64,000 bases of DNA from Schmidtea polychroa (Eukaryota), in NCBI GenBank assembly GCA_044892525.1, contig CM097886.1, forward strand, positions 14,570,001 through 14,634,000, written 5' to 3'. The notes under the pieces were generated by a model. The model worked only from the letters and a program-made list of their open reading frames with translations, had not been told where the DNA came from and did not search any database. The stretch's first letter is position 1. Every line of letters begins with the position of its first letter. Positions 4,201-63,975 of this stretch are shown in pieces. A program made the position numbers and the translations under genes.

Positions 4201-4309
4201 TTTTCTTGTATGAATTGTAGAGTCTTTGAAATTGCTCATTCGAGAACGTTATTAATTTTTGCATCTATTTCTTACTTCTAAATAATTTTTTATATAACTT
4301 CTAAACTTA

Positions 4310-4799
4310 TTTTGCTACTTGTCCATTCATATGCCACAATGATGTGTCTCTGTCTTTGGCAGAAGAAGAAAAACTCATTGAATTGAAAAATGATGTAGTT
4401 TTGAAAGCTGCGCTTGCTGAGAAGGACTTGCCAGAATTTTGGATTTTCGTAAAAAGTCAATATCCTGATTTAAGTTTAAAAGCCATCAAATCTCTGCTGC
4501 CATTTGGATCCTCATATCTGTGCGAATTCGGATTCTCTGCACTCACAGAGATTAAATCTAAAAACAGAGAGCGATTTCTAATGTTGGATGATGAGCTGCG
4601 AGTTTGTTTAACAAAAATCGAACCACGTATAAAATTTATTTGCGACAAAAAACAAGCGCACTCATCCCATTAAATAAAATATATACATGTAATTTCATTT
4701 TATTAAAAAAATTCTATATAAAAGATACATTCTTTCTATTTGTGCCTTGACTTTTTTTTTCTAATTTGTGCCGGGAGGTAAAAAGTTTGCGTACCACTG
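4310..4799 (+). mobile_element. hAT (Buster/Charlie-type) transposase 3' fragment with right TIR
   Basis: C-terminal dimerisation motif LLPFGSSYLCEFGFSAL..IKSK.RER....DELRVCLT.IEPRI....KKQAHSSH. TIR ...AAAAGTTTGCGTACCACTG ends at 4,799 and is followed by CTGTAGAG (nnnTAnnn target). Confidence 0.9.
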
Positions 4800-4997
4800 C
4801 TGTAGAGTATTCCAAGTGTATTCTTCTCCTAAATATTCTTCAACTTCTTTTGTAAGTTTAATTCCATATGAATCGAAATAAAGAACTCCATTATAAACTC
4901 CAACCCAATGAGATCCTTTTTCATTAGAGTTTTGATAATTGATAATTATATTATTTTTCTTGGTTTTACCAATCTTGTGCAATTCATCATTCATCAA
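4800..4997 (-). pseudogene. Polinton adenain-like cysteine protease, truncated by the hAT insertion
   Basis: IIINYQNSNEKGSHWVGVYNGVLYFDSYG (HW...YFDSYG motif). The frame runs into the hAT TIR just after NTLQ, before the catalytic Cys. Confidence 0.85.
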
Positions 4998-5127
4998 AAT
5001 TTTTATTGGTATTAATAATTTTTCAAATCAAAATTTGTTTTTGTACCAACTCCAAATGTTTTTAAAAAATCCAATATTGAATACTCGGTCATTTTGTTTA
5101 AATTAAATTTATTAACGAGTGTTTATC

Positions 5128-5766
5128 TTATGAAATTATTTCATGTTTTAATTTTTTAGACATGTTTAAAATATCACCATTCAAATTATTATGACCTGCT
5201 TTCTTTGCTGCTAACAATTTTCTTAGTTGAATAAAAAGATTAATAAAAACTTTTCCATTAATATAATCGTGTTTTGTTACAAAATCCATTCCCTTTCCTT
5301 CTTTAACAACATAACCATTTTCATTTTGATTTAAATATTGATTTAAACCTTTTATATGTTTTGCATTTGATTTACCTCCCACCATTTTTATTAAATCTAA
5401 ATATATTTTAATTTCATTTTTATCATCTGAAGAATATCCTTTTATTAATTGATCCAAATCTTTTGTGTAATCTATATATAAACGTTGATTGTTGAAACTA
5501 TTTTGAGAACGAATATATACTTGACCATTATTATTTTCATATAATAGAAATCTTTGATTATTAATTGTTATAATTTGATATCCTTTATCAATAGAAAAAG
5601 TTGGTACAATTGTTGTAGGTAATTTTCCATTAATTGTTGTATCAACTTTGTATGGTTTTATATTTATCCCTAAATCTTCAGGTTCCAAATCCCAAGATTC
5701 CAATTGGTCTAATTGTTCTAAATGTCCAGATTCTAATTCTTTGGGTTTTAATTCTAATTCTTTCAA
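5128..5766 (-). CDS. Polinton hypothetical protein
   Basis: 212-codon open frame between the protease and the ATPase. Its C-terminus LRKLLAAKKAGHNNL..DILNM resembles a motif I recall from Polinton hypothetical proteins (recalled, not searched). Confidence 0.55.
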   Translation of the reverse strand: MKELELKPKELESGHLEQLDQLESWDLEPEDLGINIKPYKVDTTINGKLPTTIVPTFSIDKGYQIITINNQRFLLYENNNGQVYIRSQNSFNNQRLYIDYTKDLDQLIKGYSSDDKNEIKIYLDLIKMVGGKSNAKHIKGLNQYLNQNENGYVVKEGKGMDFVTKHDYINGKVFINLFIQLRKLLAAKKAGHNNLNGDILNMSKKLKHEIIS

Positions 5767-5861
5767 AGCTTTCGTTCATTTAAAGATTCTTCAGTCGTCA
5801 TTTTTTAATAAATAAAATGGTTCCATATATATATATATATATATAAAATTTTTATATATAA

Positions 5862-6543
5862 ATGGCTAGTTGGAATCCAATTTTAACGCGACATAAAAGT
5901 AAATTTAATAATAAAATATTTCCTCATAATTTTAGATTATTAATTGTTCGATTTTCAGGATGTGGAAAGAATGTACTTCTTTTGAGAATGTTACTTGGTT
6001 TTTTAGATTATAATAATTTAATATTTTATTCTATAACTATAAACTATAACTATAATGATTTTAGAATCAAACATTGCTAATAAAAATGATTATGTTAGTG
6101 ATGAATCAAGTTTCATTAATAAAACAAGTTTTAATAATGAATCAATACAGGTTTTATTCTCCAACAAACCTGAAGATGTATTACATTGTGATTTTCTTTC
6201 CAAAGATAAAAAGAATCTAGTTATATCTGATGATGTTGTAAATATGAAAAATCAAGAAATTCAAAAAAGTTATTTTACTCGAGGACGTCAGAATAATTGT
6301 AATGTGATTAACATCTTTCAAACTTTTATGCCTTGGATAAAAATTCAATTAAAAACAACTCCAATTATTTCATCTTTTTTAAATTAGATAAGCGTGACAA
6401 GAATATGATTTATAGTGATTTATTTACAAATGTTTAACCTGACAAGTACATGTTTAATGTGTTTGTCGCTAATCATTGGAAAAAAATACAATTATATTTA
6501 TTTGGATAGAGAAAAGGATGAGTTAAAGAAAAACCTGTTTTAA
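5862..6543 (+). pseudogene. Polinton A32/FtsK-like packaging ATPase, frameshifted
   Basis: FPHNFRLLIVRFSGCGKN (degenerate Walker A), NLVISDD (Walker B), YFTRGRQNNCNVI..FQ. At least two frameshifts. Confidence 0.9.
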
Positions 6544-6583
6544 ACTTGTATTTAAAATATTAAAAACTTGTTTTTAACAAAAT

Positions 6584-8480
6584 TTGATTTGTTAAAAACT
6601 TGATTTCTGTAATTCATTATTATAAAATCTACGTAATATTTCTTCATTATTTTCATCGATGATACCATATGTCATTGGAATTGTATGATGTATTTTATTT
6701 ATAATAAAAATTTCATTTGTCTATTTCGCTGTGAATCCTTTATCAAATTTATTTTTATATTTAAATATTTGTTGGGTTTTGAATTATTTCAAGTCGGTTC
6801 TCTCTGACTCCTGTGTTCTTTAAATCAAAACAATGAACGACCCAACGTATATTGAAACAACAGGTTCACAATTTATTATCACGCTACAATTACCAATCAA
6901 AGTTTTATACGATTCTCCGCTCGGCGTTGATGCTTTGCAAACAAATAATATTCACCTTTTAGTCCTTTAGATTCTCTCGATTCACGTTTTTCTCGGTTTC
7001 TGTTTGGTTTGATTCCTTTTCACCTCTCCGTATTCTTAATTCTATTCTTTTCCCTACTTTCCCTAATTCGTCTACCAACTTTTCCTACAGTCTAATTCTT
7101 CGAACCCTAGCTGAGGCAAAATGTCGATTTTCTCTGATTTTCCCTTTGCTTATATACTCCTCGAAATCAGGATGACAAATGGTTATTGCCGAGCCAATCT
7201 TTCGTTTGACATTTGCTCCTACGTATTTGCTTTGGCTGTCACCCGTAATGGTCCAACGAATCCATATAATTAATGGCCCTACCGGTCTTCCTACGCGCGC
7301 TATCTTCTCCTTACTCTTTTCCCATTAATCATTGTGTCAAACTAATGGGCCCAAATCTTCCTTCTGTTTGCTTTTCTTCTTGTTTACCCAGCTCGGGTTT
7401 CCTTTATCTCTCGGGTTCTCCATTGGCTCGGGTTTCCCATTAGCTCGGGTTTTCCATTAGCCAATTAATTAATTAATTAACGTTTTCTGTTTTCATACAT
7501 TTGAATGTTTTTCGACATTTCCTAACCATTTTCTGATAAATCCCTAACCATCATCTTGTTGACCATTAGCTAATCTATACCTGTCCCGTTTTTCCCATTC
7601 GATTTCGATGATTTTTCCATTTATTGATTTTTCTCGGATTTCCGGATACTTGCCTTTCGTAATTGCTTTTGGCATTTTCTAATACTGTTTCCATCACACT
7701 TTCCTTTACTATTGATTCTGTGCGCGATCCCGCTTTTATTTGTCTTTTTTCTTCGCTTACTTTCTATTTGAATTATTATCCTGAATTTTATTAAAATTTT
7801 TAATTTTAATTTACAGACCTCAACATATTCTTACTCTATCACCAATTTTAAACTTTGGTTTTTCTAATTCTTATTTTATAGCCAAAACTTGTTTTGGTTC
7901 TAAAACGGGGTTTGTAGAAGCTTTCCCTCCAAACAAGTTTGGAGAGAAAGAGCATTTAAAGGTTTTTCTTTAATAGAGCTATGTACATCATTATTATATT
8001 CATTTACCATCTTTTGTAACCATTCATTGTTCCATTTTTGTTTTCCAACAGCAGTAAAATATTTCCACATTTTATTTTTTAACTTTCTATTTAATCTTTC
8101 AACTACGACTGCTTTTCCTTTCTTTTCTGTTGAATATAATTTAATATCATTTTCTTGCAAAACCTTTGTAAAACTTTGTTATAAAATTCTGTTCCTTTAT
8201 CACCCCATAAATATTTTGGAATTCTTTGATATTCTTCAAATATATTTTCAAATGCTTCTGTAATAGAATATCCTGTTTCATTTTCTAAACATCTTGCAAA
8301 AGCAAATCTTGTATATAAATCTTTTATAGTTAAAATTATTTTATATTTTTCAGGGTCTGATGATTTGGTTGGCAAAAAGACTAAATCAGCAGACCAAGTA
8401 TGATCTTTTTCATAAACTTGAACTTTTAGATATTTTTTATTTTTTCTAAATTCATGGTATGATTCGTTAGCATATTTTAT
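6584..8480 (-). pseudogene. Polinton rve integrase, split by a solo LTR
   Basis: WSADLVF...ILTIKDLYTRFAFA...PKYLWGDKGTEFYNK...VVERLNR.LK. After excising 6,770-7,825 and one TSD copy the C-terminus reads KFKIGDRVRIFKYKNKFDKGFTAK*TNEIF...TY...FYNNELQK. Confidence 0.9.
6770..7825 (-). mobile_element. Solo LTR (1,056 bp), TSD TATT
   Basis: TGTTGGG...CCTCAACA with TATT at 6,766-6,769 and 7,826-7,829. Shares the GAGCTAATGGGAAACCC repeats and terminal motif with the 15,779 LTR, in opposite orientation. Confidence 0.9.
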
Positions 8481-8497
8481 TTGTGATTCTGTTGGGA

Positions 8498-9256
8498 TTA
8501 ATAAACTTTTATTAGTAAAACTTGTTTGCTAATAAAAGAATCAGTCTTGGATGCATTCTCGAGGTGTTTTTCAGTGTCTGCTTGTTCAATAATCTTTTTA
8601 TTAGCAACATCTTTTGCCATCCTTGGTACTCCTGCACCTATGAGAATCATGAAGATCTTACCCTTCATTGCTAATTTAACTAGAGCTCTTTGAATCTTTT
8701 CTTTGGTTGATGGATTTTGTATATTATTTAAATCATGTATTAAATTAACATCAGCAACATGTCTATCTCTAAGAATTTTTGAATTGTAAGCAATGTCATG
8801 TTTCAAAGCAGCTTGGTCAATTCTATTTATTGGTTCCTCTCCTTGTTTGGGATTATTATTTTCATCAAGTCTGATATCTAATCGTGTTCCTGGTCCAGTA
8901 TAGTTGTGTTTAAATAAATGTCTTTCACCTGGATATTTTTCAGTAGTAAAGGGTTTCAATAATGTTGATGTTAATTTTGGAGATTGTAAATCACCACCCT
9001 GTTTTTCAAAAATTTCAAAAGCAAATCTACTTGAAGGATCGAAATCTAACCATGGGATATTATTTGAAGATGAAATTATTTCACCTTCAAAATTATTTGA
9101 TGGAATATTATTATTATTTGATTGAGTTAAATTCTCTCTCTCTAAAGCAAGTTTAGATCGAGAGAGGTGTTTTTTAGTTTTAAGATGACTCGTTTTATGG
9201 TGTGTTGTAACATCACAATTACAAGTTTCACATCTCCAATAACGTTTAGTAGTCAT
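8498..9256 (-). CDS. Zinc-finger plus parvovirus-VP1u-type phospholipase A2 protein (adintovirus PLA2X-like)
   Basis: N-terminal CxxC...H..HL.TKKH. Ca-binding loop NYTGPGT, catalytic IDQAALKHDIAY and downstream RHVAD are all intact. Confidence 0.85.
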   Translation of the reverse strand: MTTKRYWRCETCNCDVTTHHKTSHLKTKKHLSRSKLALERENLTQSNNNNIPSNNFEGEIISSSNNIPWLDFDPSSRFAFEIFEKQGGDLQSPKLTSTLLKPFTTEKYPGERHLFKHNYTGPGTRLDIRLDENNNPKQGEEPINRIDQAALKHDIAYNSKILRDRHVADVNLIHDLNNIQNPSTKEKIQRALVKLAMKGKIFMILIGAGVPRMAKDVANKKIIEQADTEKHLENASKTDSFISKQVLLIKVY

Positions 9257-9344
9257 TTTTGAAAAGTTTAAATTTAATTATAATAATTTTAGTTTTATTA
9301 CTAAAAAACTTATTATTACTCCAAATAAGTTTGGAGAATTAAAC

Positions 9345-10619
9345 TTAATGTCCTCTAACATTCTCAATTATTGAAATCTTTCCACAATATAACTTCATTT
9401 CTATTTTCTTTTCTTCAAGAATTAATGTATATATTTTTGCTTTAAAATTAAAATCCTTTGTTATATGAAGAGTAACATCAACATTATTTATAGCTAATCT
9501 ATCATCTTGAACTGAAACATTTATACAGAATATAGAATACAAATTTTTGAAATCTTCTAAACTTAATTGTGGTTTTATTTTGAAGTCTTGGCATGTTTGA
9601 ATATAATTTACATATGGGAATATATTTTCATTGTTTTCTATATTAAACTCCATTCTATTTACTGGATAATTTAATTGAATTTGAATTGATTTTAATTTAT
9701 TAACTCCAATCTTTTGAATAAACAAGTTGTTATTTTTTTGAAAGGATGGATCTATTTCTTTGAATCCAATTAAAATATATCTTGGTCGATATGCTAAATT
9801 TGCAATCTTTATAGAGTATGTTGAACCTTCTCTCATGTCAAATACACTACAGATTCTATTTAAATAATTTACATTTATAGATTTGTTGGAATTTAATCTT
9901 TCCAGTAATTTAATTTCAGCGTGTGGATTTAATGCCCATTTAGATATATGTAATTCAAATGTTATTAATTTTAATTTACTTTTTGTATCTGCAGCTCCAA
10001 TAATATTTTATCATCTAATATTCTATTACAAAGTAATTCTATGAAAACATTATGGAGTATGTCATTATAGTTTTGAAGGAATCCAAATAAATGTATCAAT
10101 TCGAAATAACCTTCAAATTTTTTAGATTATATAGTTGAACTCGTTTATGATAACCATAATTTACATCTAAACCATCTTTGTCTAAATCACCATTATTTAC
10201 ATTAGGGATCCAACCTGTTAATTCACCATATTCATTTTTGTAATCACAACCAGTCAAAACAAAATTTAACATTGTAGAATATACACCTGGACTTGATATT
10301 TTTTTAATTTCTGATGATCCTAATTTTAATCTCATGCTGTTGAATAAATTTGGAAAGATATTATTTTCTAGGTTAATATCTTTGTTTGCTTCAATCTCTA
10401 ATTCAATTTTGTAATATAATTTTGCATTACAAATATCTATAGGGTTTGATGTTTGAAGATATTAAAAAACTATATCACCAACACGATTTAAATTTGAAAT
10501 GGAACCAGAGGTTGGACAGATTTTAAGTACATCATTTTCTTGATTTCATGAATAAACTGTTTATCATAATCAAGATTTAATTTATTTTTTTCTAAAATCT
10601 CGAGATTTATATTGTTCAT
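9345..10619 (-). pseudogene. Polinton major capsid protein (double jelly-roll), frameshifted
   Basis: ATG at 10,619; ...LNRVGDIVF...NNIFPNLFNSMRLKLG..EIKK..SPGVYSTM; RPRYILIGFK...NNNLF...YP...F...FKNLYSIFCINVS. The ORF-track pieces 10,096-10,335 and 9,345-9,836 are fragments of it. Confidence 0.8.
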
Positions 10620-10769
10620 TTTTATAATAAAAATTTCAATTTTTCAATTTTTATATTTTTCTTTTATTGATAAAACTTGTTTTATCAATAAAAGTTACTA
10701 TTCATAATGTGACCCTCTAATTTTTAGAATTTTATAAATATAAAATTTTAAAAAATGACAAAAAACCGA

Positions 10770-10850
10770 ACCATAATAGCTCAGTGGGATTAGATTCAAT
10801 CAGTAGTATGAATAGGCAGCGGTTCAAATCCCAAAGTCAAACTATTTTTT
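10770..10850 (+). promoter_or_regulatory. tRNA-like Pol III cassette 1 (A box, B box, T-run)
   Basis: TAGCTCAGTGG at 10,777, GGTTCAAATCC at 10,821, T6 at 10,845. Confidence 0.6.
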
Positions 10851-10946
10851 GTATAAATATTATTTTCATAATATTCTACTACTTTTAGTTTTTAAGTAGA
10901 ATATTTAATTTTCTATGTTTAATTGGAAAAAGAAATTATAAAAACA

Positions 10947-11028
10947 AGATTGCTGGCTCAGTGGGAATAGACTGGCACAGTGGTTCAAATGGATAATTGT
11001 TTAAATCCCAACTGAAATTAGTTTTTTT
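10947..11028 (+). promoter_or_regulatory. tRNA-like Pol III cassette 2 (degenerate B box)
   Basis: TGGCTCAGTGG at 10,954, TGTTTAAATCC at 10,998, T7 at 11,022. Confidence 0.45.
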
Positions 11029-35221: not shown

Positions 35222-37399
35222 ATATTTCAAGCTATTGAATGAGGATAATGTATCAGTTGATCGTCTAAAACCAGCATGGCAATCAAGTTAGGAGTGGAGA
35301 ATTGTTGTGATTAGAAAAGCATTAATCACACAAAACCCTTTTAACAAAATATTAATTTAATTTTGTTTCAATAATTAAGAATTGTGAAATTATAAATATT
35401 TGAATTTTGTTAAATCATTATGTCAAATCATAACAACTACCATAACAAATTTATTAATCTTAAAACAGATCCTGTGATAGTAGGCCTGGACTCGTATATT
35501 ACTTAATCAAGAAAGCATTCTGTTGAAGCCTCAGTGTTGAACTCTTAGTGTCTTATACTTAGTCTTAAGGTTAGGTATTGAATTAAGTATGTGCTCTAGT
35601 TGCATTATAGATCATTAATTACTCAAATTGTTTGTCGTCCTGGCTCACTGGACTCGATACGGCAAACCCTTAATGTGTTGTAACCTTGAGCTAACGTACA
35701 AAATAAAGGTTCGCCGTGGCCTCAGTCGATTTAATTATAAACGTTAACACTACACGTAGACAACGTCGATACTGATCATGTTGCTTATACCTGGGCCTAA
35801 AATCAGTTTTTACCCAACTCATGGAACAACATAAACTTAAATTTTTTATTCACTTTAGATGTACTGAATTTCAATGAACTGAAAAAGTTAACTCATTTCT
35901 TGACCAACGAATTTTGAGTATTGACATACACATAAAAATGGTAATCAATGAAAAAATGTTTACTAAACTGCTGAGCTATATAATAAAAGTGTTGAAATTG
36001 ACCAAAACTGCTAAGTTGGAGATTCTAGTTATAAAATTTTTAAATAAAGTTAAAAATTTCGTATTTACTGAAAAAATTAAATAATTTACGTAGGTTTAAG
36101 TACATAATCAAGATTGTAAGGCTGTGAAAATAGTAAAATTAAAATTAAGTAGAATGTAATTAAAAAAAAATAACGGTCTACAAAATTTTACAGTAAACCA
36201 ATCGACCACTTCGCGCGAGAACAATATAGTAGAGTCCAGAAGTAGAATGTTCCGGTAAACCGGCCTGGTGTCTAATTCATCACTAGCAACTAACGCGAAC
36301 ACAGAATGTTATCAGTGAAGGGTTAGAATAACATGAAAACTTAACTGTAAGACAAACAGTAATCGACATACAATCATTGTTAGATGCTATAACATTCAAT
36401 TCTTCAGTCATCAAATAAATTACTAAGACTAAATAAATCCAAAATTATATTTCAATAAATCTACTTATCTGAACTTCGAATTTTTGTCCAGGGTCATAGT
36501 TTTATAACATCCTGGGACATTTTCTTTTTATAAATTTTAATTTCAACCAAATATCAACATACCACATTCATACTTGAATTGCAATTTTATTAAAAATTAT
36601 TTTCAAAATTAAAATCAAAATATTCATTTTAATTTTAAACCATTTTAATTTTAATATATTTTAAATAATTTAAGTTTCGCTTTTATTTTTACAAAATTTA
36701 ATCATAAAATAATTCTAATTTAATATTTTAATTTTAACTCCTCACAGTCTTAATCATAGTTTTTCTAGTTTAAATTAAATCTATTTTAGCTATTTATAAT
36801 TGGTAGACCATTTCAACTAAATAGATTAGTTTTTACAAATTAAGTGTAAGGTGTACGGTTAATTAATTATAATGCCGAATCGTTTTAACTAATAGTACTT
36901 AAAAGTCATTTTAACTATTTAAATTTACAACTCCGTTTAACTCATCGTTTACTTGGATCGTTTTAATTAAATAGTTTTTTTTCTTTTCAATAAATTTGGA
37001 TTTAAATCTTTAGGGGATTGGCTTTGATGATTTATGGCAGGGGTGCCCATAAGGTCGATCACGATCTACCGGTAGATCGCGAAGGATTTTTTAGTAGATC
37101 TTCATAAAAATATTTTTTATATAAATTTAGATTTTATATAAAATTTCTGTTTTATGCTTAAATTTTTTGTCAATTTTCATGTTCTGTCTTCCATTTCTAT
37201 GGTAATACTAAATAACATTTTTTAATTTTGATTTCACCATTTCCAAAATGTTATTTAGTTTAATTTAGTTTAGGTAAATATTATGTAAGGTAGGTAAATA
37301 TTATGTAAGTATTAAAAAAGTAGATCGCATACACATTTTGGATGTGAATGTAGCTCTCCTAGAAAAATTAGTGGGCACCCCTGCTGTAGTGTATTTGAC

Positions 37400-37900
37400 A
37401 TGAGAGAAGGTTCAACATACTCTATAAAGATTGCAAATTTAGCATATCGACCAAGATATATTTTAATTGGATTCAAAGATATAGATCCATCCTTTCAAAA
37501 AAATAACAACTTGTTTATTCAAAAGATTGGAGTTAATAAATTAAAATCAATTCAAATTCAATTGAATAATAGTTATTATCCAGTAAATAGAATGGAGTTT
37601 AATATAGAAAACAATGAAAATATATTCCCATATGTAAATTATATTCAAACATGCCAAGACTTCAAAATAAAACCACAATTAAGTTTAGAAGATTTCAAAA
37701 ATTTGTATTCTATATTCTGTATAAATGTTTCAGTTCAAGATGATAGATTAGCTATAAATAATGTTGATGTTACTCTTCATATAACAAAGGATTTTAATTT
37801 TAAAGCAAAAATATATACATTAATTCTTGAAGAAAAGAAAATAGAAATGAAGTTATATGGTGGAAAGATTTCAATAATTGAGAATGTTAGAGGACATTAA
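37400..37900 (+). pseudogene. Captured Polinton capsid C-terminal part
   Basis: Near-identical to 9,345-9,836; retains NSY that the 9.6-kb copy lacks. Confidence 0.9.
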
Positions 37901-37987
37901 GTTTAATTCTCCAAACTTATTTGGAGAAATAAACAAGTTTTAGTAATAAAACTAAAATTATTATAATTAAATTTAAACTTTTTAAAA

Positions 37988-38542
37988 ATGACTACTAAAC
38001 GTTATTGGAGATGTGAAACTTGTAATTGTGATGTTACAACACACCATAAAGCGAATCATCTTAAAACTAAAAAACACCTCTCTCGATCTGAACTTGCTTT
38101 AGAGAGAGAGAATTTAACTCAATCAAATAATAATAATATTCCTACAAATAATTTTGAAGGTGAAATAATTTCATCTTCAAATAATATCCCATGGTTAGAT
38201 TTCGATCCTTCAAGTAGATTTGCTTTTGAAATTTTTGAAAAACAGGGTGGTGATTTACAATCTCCAAAATTAACATCAACATTATTGAAACCCTTTACTA
38301 CTGAAAAATATCCAGGTGAAAGACATTTATTTAAACACAACTATACTGGACCAGGAACACGATTAGATATCAGACTTGATGAAAATAATAATCCCAAACA
38401 AGGAGAGGAACCAATAAATAGAATTGACCAAGCTGCTTTGAAACATGACATTGCTTACAATTCAAAAATTCTTAGAGATAGACATGTTGCTGATGTTAAT
38501 TTAATACATCATCAACCAAAGAAAAGTTTCAAAGAGCTCTAG
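37988..38542 (+). pseudogene. Captured ZnF-PLA2 gene, 3' frameshift caused by a 25-nt deletion
   Basis: Near-identical to 8,498-9,256; catalytic motifs intact; deletion between CAT microhomologies. Confidence 0.88.
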
Positions 38543-38983
38543 TTAAATTAGCAATGAAGGGTAAGATCTTCATGATCGCATACACATTTTGGATGTGAAT
38601 GTAGCTCTCCTAGAAAAATTAGTGGGCACCCCTGATTTATGGTAAGGAGTTATCCAAATTTAGTTAATGGATACTAATAGACAAGTCAACATACCGGCTT
38701 AATTCGTATTCGACGGTTAATTTCATTTTAACTAGACTTGGGTAGCGAAGTTAATTTACTCTAATTTCGGTTAAAATTCTAGTTGATAATAAAAGTTGAG
38801 TTAACTATCAATCAATATTTTTTTCTCTAAAGGGTCCTAACCTGTCGTCAATAGGTGTGAGATTTTCCTGTCCAAATTGTTTGCGTACTGATTTCGCTAG
38901 GATCAAATCTAAGTAAATATTAGTGTACAAAGCTCATCGTCTCATCATATATTCTTACCATCTAAATATAATAATGTGGATTT

Positions 38984-48644: not shown

Positions 48645-50304
48645 TGTTGGTTACTTAGGGGTGTGCCCTTTTTACAATTTAAAATACGTTAGGGGTAATC
48701 ATAATCGTTCGACTCTTTCCTAAGCACCTCCATGACTATTGCAATTTAAACCATTTGTGTACCCATGGCGACGACCATGTTGGTACTGTACACAAAGGTG
48801 AAAAAACAATGAGCAGGTGAGCTCTATTACTAAAACTACTCCCCATTGGATTTTCTTTTCGGGTTCTAGACTGCCGATAGAAGGTCTTACGTCCTTATCC
48901 ACTATATATGCTATTTTTGGATCGATGTTGGTCCTCAATTACGGGTATTTTTAATTGTTCTCTTATAAAATTTTGTGCAGGGATCCGTCCTTATTTCCCA
49001 GCTAGTAATTATTGTTCTACACTTCCTACAATATTTAAATTATCCTTTGAAAAATTTGCGCAGGGATTGGCCCTTATTTTCAAGTTAATCCACACTTGCC
49101 ATGATATTTAAATTGTTCTTCAAAGATTTTGAGCAGGGATCTGCCTGTGTTTCTAATCCTGAGCTGTCGGAAAAATTACATAAATCTAACTTTATCCATC
49201 TTCAACTGGTCTCAACTATTCCATCTTTACTCCTAACTCACTTATGTCTATAAAACATAAAGGTGACTAAGCCACCTACATTATCTAAATCTAAATAAAA
49301 TCCTAAACGACCTAAAATGACATTACACTCCCAAATCATTCCTATCACTATCACTGTCCTCTAACTCGATGGACTCAACCGGCGAAATATCTGCCGACCA
49401 ACAGCACGTAGTGCCGCCCGTCCACAAACTTTTCCCCAGCCCAGACCATCGACACAATCAACAAATCATATAATTGAATTCAATAAAACTATGAATTAGA
49501 ATAAATGAATTTAAACCATTAAAAAGGATCACAAAAAAAAATTGAACCGAGACATTTATTAATTAAATTTATTAATTAAAATACTTCATAAAAATTACAG
49601 AAAACAATAACAAATAAATTACCACATCCACGTTGGCATAAAATCGAAACTGAGAGTTCTGCAAATTAAGTGGCTATGTTGAAAAAAGAGAGAGAGAGAG
49701 AGTTTTTCAATTGAATTTGTGATCAGTATTTATACTGATTTTGAATGCGTACTCTATCCAATCAGAGTGCGAGAATTATTGAATTGATTTTGCACACATG
49801 CATGAATGTGTGTAATTATTTATTTGTTTTAATTTCATAAATTTAATTAATTTCTTATTTAATTTTTATTAATTTTAATTTTACAAATTTTATAATTTAA
49901 CTAATTTGAGTTATATTAATTTTTATTAATTTAAACATTTTTATTCTTTAAATTTAATAAGTTAAATAACCATTTAATTCTATAAACTTTACAATTTACA
50001 TAATGCTAATTAATTTTATTATTTTTGACGATTTAATTTTTATATTATTTAAATAATTTTCAACTAATTCCATTTTCTATTTTATTATTTTTCTATTTAA
50101 ATTTTTAAGTGTTGAATTTTCTGTTAAATTTATTTATCTCTTTATTCTATTATACGGGGTTTATTGATTCTTAATGTGTAATGTAGTTTATTTTATTTAT
50201 TTTAAATTAAACCTTGGTCATAAATTTTTTCAACTTTGCGGTTTTTGTGTTAGGTATTTTCGATCGATTAAAACAAACTCTCAGTTCTCGTTTTCAACCC
50301 AACA
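48645..50304 (-). repeat. 3' LTR (1,660 bp)
   Basis: TGTTGG...CCCAACA; near-identical to 62,310-63,975. Confidence 0.95.
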
Positions 50305-53002: not shown

Positions 53003-54566
53003 ACTTGGTTCTATTATCGATTGACTTAATGATTTGGTGTTGAATTCTGGTTGATTGTTGATACTTGGCTGTTATCTTGATTGATTGATTTACCTTACTA
53101 GAAAAATATCACTCCTCCTTACCGTTTATTATCTTTATAAATTATAATTTATATATTATATAACATAATTGCAATATTTTTGTTTTAGTTTCCTTGGGCA
53201 TCTCTTAATATTTGTTCCCTCGTTCCCTTAGTTTACACCTTTATTCTCATGGTCTACTTAATTTTCTCAATCCTTATTTATTTTAATTCGTGTTCCTTTT
53301 CCTCGTTTCTATGGTTTTCTTGGCTTCGAATGACTATCTCTCGATCTATTAACTTGTATTACCTCTTAGTTTTTCTTCATTACTATGGTACTTGTTCTGT
53401 TCTCGGTTGTTTCAGTTTTAATCATTTCTCGAGTTTACTATAACGGTTACCCTTTATATTTCCTCCTTTCATTAACTATTATTGTTATCGTTGCCGTTTT
53501 TCTTGACTTAGTTCATTGTTTTACTTAGCGGTTTCTCTTCTTAAGTTTGAAACTATATTCACAGTTGTACTTGTATTGCCTCTCATCTGTACTTGACTCA
53601 GTCCTTGTCATTTCTATAACTCATTCTTAACTAGAATTTCCATTATTCTCCTTATATTCTCATTCATTCTCTCTTACCCGATTATCTAATATCAATTCAT
53701 TTCTTGTCATTTCTACTAATATATCAAAATTTACCAATCTTATCATTCCTTAACTTGCCACTCTTTACCTTACAAATTTATAACTCGTTCGTTTCTGCAT
53801 TCAAAACAATCAACTGAAACAAAATTCTTATCCCATTGGTCTCCGCTTTCGAGACTTATTAGAAATTCTTAATTTCCACGTTTCTACTTTTGAAACTTCA
53901 AAAATCATTATCTGGTCCGCTTCTACTTTTGAAACTTCCGAATGATGTACAATTCCTATTTCGTCGGTTGTGAATAACCATAATCCTAAATTTTCGTCGA
54001 TGTTGAATTATCTATGTGGTCGTATCAATTATCTATAGGGTCGTATCAATTATCTATAATTATCAATTATAATATCAATTGGTCGTTGTCCATTGCTGCT
54101 AATTACCCCTCCTCATTTTCCTAGTATACTTTTGCGCAATTTCGCCATTTTACTTATCCTTTTATATCTAAGTCACCTATTACTCTTTACTCGGTTCTAC
54201 TCTGGAACCAAAAACAAGATTCGTTTATCCGGTTTAAACCAAAAAAAAATTCTGTAGCACCTTGTCTACTTACCTGGGATCCCCTTTAATTAGTTAATTT
54301 TTTTTTTCCTCTTTTACTCATCATCTATTCACACTTATTCTTTATTTTCATTATCTCCTTAATTCATTTTCCTTTTTTCTCTTCCTTTTCCACTATAATC
54401 TTATTATCTTTTCTACGAGCTCGTTTATTTCCTCTCTAAATTCAAATTCCCATATGTAATTCCAATTCGTTTCTAGCTAGCTTTAATATTCTATCTTACC
54501 GTAACTTTAGCTTCGATATGTTATCTCATTGTAGCTTAACTGCTATCTCTCGCTTTTCTAGGCCTT

Positions 54567-55012
54567 TATGACTGGCTGGCACTATTCAACAGCTCAATCT
54601 TCTTCCTTCTGACCGGTTGGACTATTCGACAACTCGATCTTACGACTGGCTGGCACTATTCAACAGCTCAATCTTCTTCCTTCTGACCGGTTGGACTATT
54701 CGACAACTCGATCTTACGACTGGCTGGCACTATTCAACAGCTCAATCTTCTTCCTTCTGATCGGTTGGACTATTCGACAACTCGATCTTACGACTGGCTG
54801 GCACTATTCAACAGCTCAATCTTCTTCCTTCTGATCGGTTGGACTATTCGACAACTCGATCTTACGACTAGCTGGCACTATTCAACAGCTCAATCTTCTT
54901 CCTTCTGATCGGTTGGACTATTCGACAACTCGATCTTACGACTGGCTGGCACTATTCAACAGCTCAATCTTCTTCCTTCTGATCGGTTGGACTATTCGAC
55001 AACTCGATCTTA
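54567..55012. repeat. Six tandem 74-bp units
   Basis: ACTGGC (ACTAGC in unit 5) recurs at 54,571, 54,645, 54,719, 54,793, 54,867 and 54,941. Confidence 0.97.
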
Positions 55013-55175
55013 ATAATCCCTAACATTTATGTTTTATTCTCCATTTCTCCGTTTGTCCTAGGCTCACTATTTTTGTTGTCTTTCCTTTAGTTACTGTGCA
55101 CTTTCTAAACGTTTATCCCCCTGCATGCCTGTTTTTTACTGCTCTTACGGGTTTTCCTCACTCCCCTGACTCCGG

Positions 55176-55389
55176 ATTCGCATCTATTATTTGCATCTAT
55201 TATTCGCATCTATTATTCGCATCTATTATTCGTATCTATTATTCGCATCTAGTATTCGCATCTATTATTCGCATCTAGTATTCGCATCTATTATTCGCAT
55301 CTATTATTCGCATCTATTATTCGCATCTAGTATTCGCATCTATTATTCGCATCTATTATTCGCATCAATTATTCGCATCTATTATTCGC
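55176..55389. repeat. 13-bp minisatellite (ATTCGCATCTATT) x ~16
   Basis: Read directly; explains ORFs 55,096-55,460. Confidence 0.97.
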
Positions 55390-57984
55390 TTTCCTTTGAC
55401 TGTCCTTGTCCCTATCATTCTGCCTACCGGTTATCTATCAATTTAGTCTTTAAGCTCTAATTGTTTCTCTTTACTTCGCTCTCTCTTTTCCCATTTACTT
55501 GGTCTTCTTTTTATTTCTCCTACATGCTTCTTTTTACTGCTCTTCCAGGTTTTCCCTACTCTCCTGACTCCGGATGCGAAACACTCGCACTGGTCGATCT
55601 CCGATCGTGTGGTGATCAGTCACACGCAGAGATGTTCCAGTATATGCGATGGGCCCTGTTCCACATCTTTCGTCAGGACAGTTGGTACTTTCCTGGGCCT
55701 TATCCGTACTACGCTGAGCGTAGCTCATAGGTTGTGGATTTCCTAAATCTTAACAGGGAAAAAAAATTTTTTCCTTATTCATTTGCTCCCAATTTTCGTA
55801 ATACTTTATTCTCGTTTTTACGCAGTGCTCTTAATCTACTTATCTCGATTACTCTTGGTCCTTTTTCATTATTCTAAATATATTCACGTCTCTTGTCTAG
55901 TTAACGTCTTATTGCTATCGCTTTTACTCTTACCGCTTCGGTTGACTTGTTTCTCGTTAATATGTTCACTATTTCCTCAGGCAGATCCCTCTCGCATTAT
56001 TTGTTAATATTAGTTTATCCATTTTATTCGTTACCCTTCTATTCGTTAATGATTTATTTACGAAACATCCCTGCTCAATTTTGTAATTTATCGCTTCCGT
56101 ATTTGTATATTTTCCTCAGCTTTGATTTTTTATGTTACCTCTCACTGATTTCCCCGTCATAATGTTTCTCATTTCGTATATTTTACGTTTTCAAAATTTG
56201 TTTGTTGTTTTTCTGTTTATGGGCCTCTTTGTTCCACTCCCTATATTTTAGGTTTTTAACTTATTTCCGCGTCTATTTGATATTTTACTTTTGGCGCGTA
56301 ACTTTGATTGGTCATTTATTTTCATTATCTCATTTAATTGTTTATCTATGTCTACATATACACGCATATACTTATACATATACCCTTATCCATAAACATA
56401 TATTCATATACTCATATCCACCTATATCTGGATATCTACATCTGTACGCATTTCTCCCTAGCTGTTCGTGGAGTGGTTGATATTATTGCATTTATCGTTT
56501 CTGAATTTATTCAATCTCACAATTGCAACTTTTTGTTTCGTAATAAAAGTGGACAGTTCGTTCGTTTTCATTATTGTAACTTTTTGTTCCGTCGTAAAAG
56601 TAGGCAGTATGTTCGTTTTCCATAACTAAAACTTTTGTTCCATGTTTCTAATTGGTCTCATTTTTGTTAGTATCTCTCGTTATTTTAATTTTCCGTGTCA
56701 TGATGTTAAGCTTTCACTTTTGTTCTATTATAATGTATCGCGTTTCATTTTATATTTGTTGTTTCTCGTAATTTTGATTTTTCATTCAAATGTCTTTGCC
56801 CTTGCTTTCTTTCTGTGAATTTGTTACTTGTTGTTTTCTGTTTGTTCATTTCGTTTTGTGTTTTCCTTGTCATTTTTATTGTGTTTATTTGTTCACATTC
56901 TATTTCGTTATATGTGCGCTCTTCATTTTCTGTCCATCATGTTTTTGTATAATTTTCCCGATTGTTCCTATTACTACTCATGTCCATTTTGACTTTCATC
57001 TTGATCTGCCGTTTGTTGTTGTCCTAGTTTGATCTCATTTTTCCTCCGCGTCTTCGCAAAATGTCGTCCCCGACATTCATTATTTTATTTATTATTATGT
57101 GTTCTCTCGGTTCTCAGTATTTTGTTCTCGTGTCCTCTCTACCATATTTTCTAAACGTCCATTTTCTCTGATTAATTTTCCTTATTCTTAAATAAGTGTA
57201 GATTTTAATATTTTTTGATTTTCGCATTATTTTATCTTTGTTTATGGTGATCGGTCCTCTACTTTTATTATATATCATTTTTGGTTGGGGTGTATACACC
57301 GATATATGCGATTATTTATATACAATTAGTCCTCTTTTTGGCACTCAGTTCTGCCATTACCGTCTCTTTTCCATGTTATGACCCTGCTGATAGTTCGTTG
57401 TTTTTCCTCCTTTACGCAAAATACGGATACGGTGTTCTTCTGATCATTCCACCTCCCCTCGGAATATTTTACTCATCATCTTATAACCATTTTCAATGAA
57501 TACTATGCTGGATTTGTTATAACTATTTGTACTTCATCTTCAGCTCCCTGCGTTTTCGTTTTCCCGTTTCCTTTTCCCGTCTGATATTCTCCGTTACATT
57601 CTGACCATATCTTTCTCTCTTTGTTTTCCTCAGTTTTCTTAGTAGTTCATTTCTTGCATTCGGCTTTATCATTAGAGTCGTTCCATTTCTCTTTACTTTA
57701 GTTCAATTTTTCCTCTCTGATCCTTGATTATTCTCTCATGAACAAATTCATTATTCAAATTTTCGATTAGATTGTTCCTCCATGAGATTCCTTACTTCTG
57801 TATAGCTAATGCTATTTACGATAATATGACGCTTTTCTGCTTCCATATTTCTCCTGTGGTGGTATTGGGATTGATTTCCATTGTGATCCATTTCATTCTA
57901 TTAATTCACCTATATTGATTCATAATCTTTTATCTGAATTTTATTTCATTTTACTTCCCGAAGTTATATACTAATTATACCGCG

Positions 57985-62309: not shown

Positions 62310-63975
62310 TGTTGGTTACTTAGGGGTGTGCCCTTTTTACAATTTAAAATACGTTAGGGGTAATCATAATCGTTCGACTCTTTCCTAAGCACCTCCATGA
62401 CTATTGCAATTTAAACCATTTGTGTACCCATGGCGACGACCATGTTGGTACTGTACACAAAGGTGAAAAAACAATGAGCAGGTGAGCTCTATTACTAAAA
62501 CTACTCCCCATTGGATTTTCTTTTCGGGTTCTAGACTGCCGATAGAAGGTCTTACGTCCTTATCCACTATATATGCTATTTTTGGATTGATGTTGGTCCT
62601 CAATTACGGGTATTTTTAATTGTTCTCTTATAAAATTTTGTGCAGGGATCCGTCCTTATTTCCCAGCTAGTAATTATTGTTCTACACTTCCTACAATATT
62701 TAAATTATCCTTTGAAAAATTTGCGCAGGGATTGGCCCTTATTTTCAAGTTAATCCACACTTGCCATGATATTTAAATTGTTCTTCAAAGATTTTGAGCA
62801 GGGATCTGCCTGTGTTTCTAATCCTGAGCTGTCGGAAAAATTACATAAATCTAACTTTATCCATCTTCAACTGGTCTCAACTATTCCATCTTTACTCCTA
62901 ACTCACTTATGTCTATAAAACATAAAGGTGACTAAGCCACCTACATTATCTAAATCTAAATAAAATCCTAAACGACCTAAAATGACATTACACTCCCAAA
63001 TCATTCCTATCACTATCACTGTCCTCTAACTCGATGGACTCAACCGGCGAAATATCTGCCGACCAACAGCACGTAGTGCCGCCCGTCCACAAACTTTTCC
63101 CCAGCCCAGACCATCGACACAATCAACAAATAATATAATTGAATTCAATAAAACTATGAATTAGAATAAATGAATTTAAACCATTAAAAAGGATCACAAA
63201 AAAAAATTGAACCGAGACATTTATTAATTAAATTTATTAATTAAAATACTTCATAAAAATTACAGAAAACAATAACAAATAAATTACCACATCCACGTTG
63301 GCATAAAATCGAAACTGAGAGTTCTCCAAATTAAGTGGCTATGTTGAAAAAAGAGAGAGAGAGAGAGAGTGAGTTTTTCAATTGAATTTGTGATCAGTAT
63401 TTATACTGATTTTGAATGCGTACTCTATCCAATCAGAGTGCGAGAATTATTGAATTGATTTTGCACACATGCATGAATGTGTGTAATTATTTATTTGTTT
63501 TAATTTCATAAATTTAATTAATTTCTTATTTAATTTTTATTAATTTTAATTTTACAAATTTTATAATTTAACTAATTTGAGTTATATTAATTTTTATTAA
63601 TTTAAACATTTTTATTCTTTAAATTTAATAAGTTAAATAACCATTTAATTCTATAAACTTTACAATTTACATAATGCTAATTAATTTTATTATTTTTGAC
63701 GATTTAATTTTTATATTATTTAAATAATTTTCAACTAATTCCATTTTCTATTTTATTATTTTTCTATTTAAATTTTTAAGTGTTGAATTTTCTGTTAAAT
63801 TTATTTATCTCTTTATTCTATTATACGGGGTTTATTGATTCTTAATGTGTAATGTAGTTTATTTTATTTATTTTAAATTAAACCTTGGTCATAAATTTTT
63901 TCAACTTTGCGGTTTTTGTGTTAGGTATTTTCGATCGATTAAAACAAACTCTCAGTTCTCGTTTTCAACCCAACA
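62310..63975 (-). repeat. 5' LTR (1,666 bp) with CCAAT, TATA and AATAAA
   Basis: Minus-strand TATAAATA at ~63,410, CCAAT element at ~63,430, AATAAA at ~63,230. Confidence 0.95.

Follow-up and report, generated by a model that had tools for sequence, protein, structure and literature searches.

A dead Polinton copy at the locus

We analysed a stretch of 64,000 nucleotides from the Schmidtea polychroa genome (hereafter the window; contig CM097886.1, positions 14,570,001 to 14,634,000), which carries at positions 4800-11565 a dead, truncated Polinton/adintovirus-like copy in which every gene is broken. This copy belongs to a family whose young members, found elsewhere in the same genome, encode a phospholipase A2 (PLA2) and an integrase in a single gene. 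The window was translated in six frames and scanned with Pfam, and the pieces of the copy were placed by tblastn with proteins of young copies. On the reverse strand, a double jelly-roll major capsid gene (9345-10619) survives in four frame pieces, placed by tblastn at 10619-9351, with 70-86% identity to the 430-amino-acid (aa) open reading frame (ORF) of a young copy. It is followed on the same strand by a zinc finger–PLA2–rve integrase fusion gene (7826-9256), placed by tblastn and Pfam, which has frameshifts near 8520, 8165 and 7940 and whose four frame pieces together cover the first 404 residues of the 461-aa ORF of young copies (tblastn). The 3' part of the integrase is interrupted by a solo long terminal repeat (LTR) of 1056 bp (6770-7825), recognised by its TGTTG..CAACA ends and a 4-bp target site duplication (TSD), and the C-terminal end of the integrase lies beyond it (6595-6771, reverse strand, 78% identity to residues 403-461) with no chromodomain after it.

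The remaining genes are equally decayed. An A32/FtsK-like packaging ATPase with several breaks lies on the forward strand (5862-6560; tblastn E 2e-40 for 5862-6540). Next to the remnant of a 289-aa putative core gene on the reverse strand (5122-5799; tblastn match 5685-5122, 52% identity, E 7e-50) stand the initial codons of the pX-like gene, brought there by a deletion, with ~940 bp of the young copy gone. An adenain-like protease with one frameshift (4800-5093, reverse strand; tblastn E 2e-25 to the young-copy protease, from 5080) keeps its His and Asp motifs in the six-frame reading and has lost its Cys-bearing end. There the copy is truncated at the left by the 3' end of a hAT transposon (4305-4799, forward strand; Dimer_Tnp_hAT E 0.0083, under the curated cut-off), the terminus of which abuts the protease frame. 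At the right, the inner part of a terminal inverted repeat (TIR) remains (10722-11565, 72-80% identity to young-copy TIR arms); its outer terminus is gone, and no AGTAGT/ACTACT was found at the end of this arm.

The initial annotation had described five hallmark genes in ~6 kb. All five motifs are present, three of them by Pfam (DJR-like_dom, E 8.6e-10, 9348-10007; Phospholip_A2_4, E 4.3e-9, 8501-9277; rve, E 1.2e-9, 8106-8528) and the ATPase and protease by tblastn, as their pieces gave no relevant Pfam match or were too short for the scan. The number of genes has to be lowered to four, because a single broken gene accounts for both PLA2 and integrase. Polymerase, penton and pX had no match in the window, nor in 40 kb to its left and 20 kb to its right, and a displacement of the missing left half to the neighbourhood was rejected on the lack of matches in these 60 kb of flanks. 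The coding parts of the window copy are up to 90% identical to the closest other loci and only 68-88% identical in DNA to young copies; the copy therefore belongs to an older wave.

Gene content and copy number of the young family

The host genome assembly comprises 781 Mb in 1012 contigs. A search with the window capsid fragment gave 2685 candidates, and all 150 that were scored matched, mostly as open frames of 430-437 aa. Six young copies were taken from this list, and 20 more elements (10 per terminus type) were added later; these were early-listed pairs of ends, chosen from 58 with a few near the list tops skipped. Young elements are ~15 kb long, and the gene order in the six copies is capsid, zinc finger–PLA2–integrase, ATPase (reverse), pX-like, 289-aa, protease, 254-aa, 336-aa, 198-aa and the polymerase pPolB (reverse). 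The polymerase is a 1459-aa ORF (PF03175, E 3.4e-14), the integrase matches rve (E 6.5e-12) and the ATPase ORF matches Pox_A32 (E 9.7e-9, over the cut-off). The protease had no Pfam match; it was assigned to Atlas Peptidase_C5 clusters (0.96-0.98), and His, Asp, Gln and Cys motifs could be read. An ORF of its own, 197 aa long, encodes the pX-like protein (Adeno_PX, E 0.042).

A double jelly-roll is predicted for the capsid of a natural young copy: its model (predicted local distance difference test (pLDDT) 89.8, 42 sequences) matched PBCV-1 Vp54 (E 4e-14) and the iridovirus, mavirus and Sputnik capsids (E ~1e-13) in a Foldseek search. Similarly, the model of the 254-aa ORF (pLDDT 94.2, 113 sequences) resembles the mavirus penton (E 4e-11), which is the nearest solved penton, and adenovirus penton bases, suggesting that this ORF is a single jelly-roll penton. 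TIR arms of 300-990 bp, 93-98% identical, were present in all six copies, and five of them had AGTAGT..ACTACT ends, one having an altered left end. A 6-bp TSD was perfect in five copies and had a single mismatch in the sixth; among the 20 sampled elements it was perfect in 16, had a single mismatch in one and failed in three. With pPolB, a DDE integrase, TIRs, a 6-bp TSD, ATPase, protease and the predicted capsid and penton, the family has, as judged from sequences and models, the defining features of Polintons/Mavericks. The initial annotation had proposed a search for penton, TIRs and 6-bp TSDs, all of which young copies thus possess, and had supposed that an intact progenitor with pPolB might exist elsewhere in the genome; pPolB accompanies the other genes in 26/26 examined elements. 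Neither of the observations it had named as telling against its reading, a capsid lacking the double jelly-roll and genes that never occur with pPolB, was made.

The annotation had also seen a multi-copy endogenous lineage, which was correct and underestimated its scale, as there are hundreds of full-length copies. Two terminal motifs had 707+654 and 715+704 exact matches in the genome, compared to 0 for reversed controls. Among the first 100 matches per motif, a reverse partner 12.5-17.5 kb away (median ~15 kb) existed for 35 of 51 forward ends with the one motif and for 23 of 54 with the other. By extrapolation from the start of one contig, this amounts to ~790 full-length elements, or 12 Mb and 1.5% of the genome. 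All nine non-polymerase genes were present in each of the 20 sampled elements; individually, they were open in 6 to 10 of 10 elements, and the polymerase was open in 9/20. The six core frames were open together in 4/20 elements and all ten frames in 2/20, an open frame being no proof of function.

We then determined pairwise ratios of nonsynonymous to synonymous divergence (dN/dS) from 14-19 open copies, the pairs of which are not independent. The ratio was 0.14 for both capsid and ATPase, 0.24 for PLA2, 0.29 for the pX-like gene and 0.36 for both protease and integrase, and this range of 0.14-0.36 supports the use of the virion genes. The linker of the fusion was less constrained (0.57), and the 336-aa gene (0.60, at low divergence) gave no support for use. 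Contigs of two sequencing runs covered 30 and 28 of 30 bins of the element; these runs are only guessed to be RNA, and the coverage cannot show transcription. Contigs of another run, which carries a different organism label (X10), were mostly 99-100% identical to a young copy (L029:300-8500) in pieces of ≤1.1 kb, in a comparison that had no host-gene control; a recent transfer between species is one possible source of this match.

The family has two pPolB types, 58-60% identical to each other, which share the same virion and capsid module. The polymerase type tracks the TIR type in 6/6 of the first copies and in 19/20 of the sampled elements, and the 3' end of a type-1 polymerase gene persists as a remnant in 8 of the 10 type-2 elements. 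A 184-aa ORF that could have indicated a split polymerase in young copies proved to be such a remnant of the other type, and the split was rejected. The pairing of polymerase and TIR types offers a natural test of origin recognition by pPolB, the exchange of which is known from nematodes (10.1101/2023.08.22.554363). Several pPolB matches form inverted pairs 2-12 kb apart (for example C1:235384712 and 235393695). Read by eye, the N-terminus of the polymerase has a Cys motif with a His motif downstream of it that would suit an OTU-like domain; Pfam gave no OTU match.

A PLA2–integrase fusion and its possible role

In young members of the family, PLA2 and integrase are encoded as one ORF with an N-terminal zinc finger. 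A single ORF of 460-469 aa was present in 4/6 of the first copies and in 14/20 sampled elements, and a 300-aa stretch across the junction was free of stops in 131/131 best matches, a set biased by scoring the best first. A protein search with the fusion gave 772 homologs, and 114 of 120 among those listed had the HDxxY motif of PLA2. In an alignment of 50 rows, including 4 copies from the host genome and reaching down to ~40% identity, H98, D99, Y102 and D114 of PLA2 and D224, D291 and E325 of the integrase were invariant. The 461-aa ORF had no Chromo match in Pfam, while relatives carry a chromodomain, and a search of PDB sequences with the fusion profile returned integrases only.

Glycine motifs flank the PLA2 part. 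Upstream of it, outside the Pfam PLA2 match (residues 58-139), GG[DSN] occurred in 52 of the 70 homologs with enough N-terminus (background 0.09 per 35 aa); downstream, K...GxG occurred in 85/114 homologs (background 0.14 per 35 aa) and was followed by a linker of 5-77 aa. A post hoc count of GxG+[LIVMHY] gave 6 occurrences in 947 aa of the pX-like, 289-aa and fusion proteins versus 0 in 4526 aa of the others.

To place the fusion among related elements, we compared nine IMG/VR loci. Five had PLA2 on an ORF bearing pX, the published PLA2X with pX at the C-terminus, and a separate integrase (with a chromodomain in the 2/2 scanned). One had the fusion and a separate pX, as in the present family, another had the two as neighbours in shifted frames, and in the remaining two no PLA2 was found; the partner of PLA2 is therefore either pX or integrase. 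Capsids of PLA2X-bearing elements from IMG/VR match the capsid profile of the family (E 1e-50 to 1e-56, 3 loci). An integrase tree built by a quick method from 66 rows (with every second homolog used and L131 left out) placed the five PLA2X-type rows together on a single long branch, separate from the fused rows; a common origin of all fusions does not emerge from it. One IMG/VR contig (L130:471-1535) carries PLA2X and protease in a single 355-aa frame. We found no PLA2–integrase fusion in the available parts of PMC8502044, PMC3671162, PMC5803895, PMC11131425, PMC11161782, PMC11071296, PMC8097293, 10.1101/2023.08.22.554363, 10.64898/2026.10.13.758929 and 10.64898/2026.07.28.741253, subscription papers and Repbase lying outside this search. 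Measured against these sources, the element class is already known and the fusion appears to be what is new. Planarian Polintons have been reported to be piRNA-silenced (PMC8532177), and the family may therefore already be catalogued as a repeat; PMC6431247 yielded nothing further about planarian Polintons.

What might the fusion do? We lean towards the view that it is a core precursor packed into the virion and cut at maturation by the protease of the element. In this scheme, pPolB would copy the linear genome from its TIR ends, and the ATPase would pack it into the capsid with the pX-like and 289-aa core proteins. The fusion would enter the particle as one precursor, and the protease would cut precursors at GG|X and GX|G, motifs that flank PLA2. 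Once released, PLA2 would breach the endosomal membrane in the manner of parvoviruses, and the integrase would integrate the arriving DNA with a 6-bp TSD; one gene would thereby tie entry to integration. The window copy does none of these steps. Two precedents come from published systems: mavirus virions contain the integrase and a protease-cleaved hydrolase, with GG|X and GX|G sites (PMC6048507), and PLA2X together with the presumed entry role of the parvovirus PLA2 has been described by Starrett et al. (PMC8502044).

An alternative that we consider rather unlikely is that the fusion stays uncut and that PLA2 serves as a targeting or membrane-crossing domain, helping the integrase–DNA complex through the nuclear or endosomal membrane. 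PLA2 and integrase are indeed conserved together, retroviral-type integrases tolerate N-terminal extensions, and the C-terminal GxG may merely end the PLA2 fold. Against this stand the variable length of the weakly constrained linker (5-77 aa, dN/dS 0.57), the position of the upstream GG motif outside the Pfam PLA2 match and the recurrence of the same Gly motifs in the pX-like protein. We have similar doubts about a family that spreads only as an intracellular self-synthesising transposon, with capsid, protease and PLA2 as unused viral leftovers: the very high copy number with many broken copies and the dN/dS values near 1 of the penton and the 289-aa core gene would fit it, whereas the values of 0.14 for capsid and 0.24 for PLA2 between diverged copies, the nine non-polymerase genes in 20/20 sampled elements and lengths that cluster at ~15 kb, as expected from a capsid size limit, speak against it. 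Finally, the junction could be an assembly artefact or a single local mutation, as the two parts lie in different frames in the window copy and at locus L126; this explanation is already refuted by the 131/131 stop-free matches and by the recurrence of the fusion in >100 independent public proteins, and we give it practically no credence.

The packaged and cleaved precursor itself has to be weighed against several points. The evidence consists of sequence and models, and no particle, protein or cleavage has been observed. K...GxG also ends PLA2 in PLA2X proteins and may therefore be structural; moreover, GG[DSN] is absent in 18/70 and K...GxG in 29/114 homologs. At low divergence, a signal of purifying selection is missing for penton (dN/dS 0.95) and for the 289-aa gene (0.92), and the elements with six core frames or all ten frames open are only the 4 and 2 of 20 given above. 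Intracellular transposition or trans-complementation, neither of which needs virions, can likewise yield near-identical copies by the hundreds. Thus, the full proposal, namely that a widespread, undescribed polintovirus lineage carries an entry enzyme and an integrase as a cleaved precursor and that the ~790 copies of this host (perhaps 100-200 with open core frames) are an endogenous DNA virus that currently produces particles, is tentative, and we regard it as possible and not probable.

Were it true, a DNA virus would be using a strategy like that of retroviral Pol, and this host would be the natural place for the first animal Polinton virions. Particles of animal Polintons have so far been unobserved (PMC8097293), and whether they are produced is a long-open question; a host with hundreds of young full-length copies and purifying selection on the capsid is a good place for seeking them. 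The fusion predicts that the integrase is a virion protein freed by the maturation protease, and a virion integrase would explain how a genome integrates before expression of its own genes.

Neighbouring elements and relation to known systems

The surroundings of the window copy are rich in other repeats. The solo LTR belongs to a family with 3261 candidates in the genome (40/40 scored were 96-100% alike), and a polypurine tract adjoins the LTR in 3/5 other LTR copies. To the right of the TIR lies a displaced non-coding piece that is normally upstream of the capsid gene (11575-11821, 85-89% identity, out of order), followed by a 261-bp element with Polinton-type AGTAGT..ACTACT ends (11862-12122). 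Copies of this element were 74-94% alike among the 40 of 101 candidates that were scored, and none of the four copies inspected had a 6-bp TSD. At 37384-38573 (forward strand), repeat analysis (I1-I3, I5, D14) located an inverted duplicate of 8646-9852, comprising the capsid 3' part and PLA2, between two hAT-like ends. The initial annotation had counted this copy as evidence for a family; as it is nearer to the window copy (96.2% identical) than to ten other loci (79-89%), it is a local duplication, and an independent insertion was rejected on the same comparison. At both 4800 and 37384 a hAT-like end cuts the Polinton copy, and 8 bases of similar sequence follow directly, which would fit hAT insertion at a preferred target inside the Polinton. 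Further right, two identical direct repeats 13.7 kb apart (48645-49986 and 62310-63657) probably represent the LTRs of a large retroelement of recent origin; they enclose 74-bp and 13-bp tandem arrays (54492-55435).

The second integrase family that had been proposed at 12.5 kb was also borne out: the fragment at 12532-12720 (forward strand) is 76% identical to the integrase region (rve) of a second Polinton family at L041. That family adjoins a copy of the first (L040:2509 to L041:6632); its polymerase is 28% identical and its capsid sequence unrelated, a capsid kinship being rejected as BLASTP gave no significant match (E 1.8). Its genes include one for a TBP-like protein of 158 aa (PF00352, E 3.4e-16). 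Elsewhere, matches to the RNA polymerase largest-subunit family came from six open frames that lack introns and are 1787-1928 aa long (L080-L083 and two further places), four of them within 120 kb and in opposite orientations.

With Polintons/Mavericks (Polintoviricetes), the family shares pPolB, the rve integrase, the A32 ATPase, the cysteine protease, the double jelly-roll capsid and the penton, as well as TIRs with AGT-repeat ends, the 6-bp TSD and a length of ~15 kb, whereas its integrase differs in carrying an N-terminal zinc finger and PLA2. Its copy load is far above that of vertebrates (≤38 intact copies per genome, PMC8097293) and above that of Trichomonas (388 pPolB2 copies, 10.1101/2023.08.22.554363), with counting criteria that differ between the studies. 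The parvovirus-type PLA2 of the family with its catalytic residues, the pX-like protein and adenain recur in alpha adintoviruses with PLA2X (PMC8502044; Sf Mavericks, PMC5803895). In contrast to them, the family joins PLA2 to the integrase, keeps pX as a separate ORF and lacks the C-terminal chromodomain that adintovirus integrases have (PMC11071296). Of the adintovirus-like label given initially, a Polinton with PLA2 stands, while a strict adintovirus, which would have both the chromodomain and PLA2X, fits only in part, the family having neither. In a BFVD fold search, the capsid matched one Adintovirus sp. entry, at 8% identity; a further, indirect link runs through the capsids of the PLA2X-bearing loci. 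The mavirus virophage (PMC6048507) provides the nearest solved penton, its integrase and hydrolase are virion proteins, and its protease cuts at GG|X and GX|G. Mavirus differs in encoding the integrase and the alpha/beta hydrolase by two distinct genes and in needing a giant helper, none being known for the family. Finally, one virion module is also combined with two polymerases in the nematode Polintons in which pPolB was exchanged (Jeong et al., 10.1101/2023.08.22.554363); here, by comparison, the two polymerases are 58-60% identical, each has its own TIR type in 25/26 elements and a 3' remnant has been left behind in 8/10 type-2 elements.

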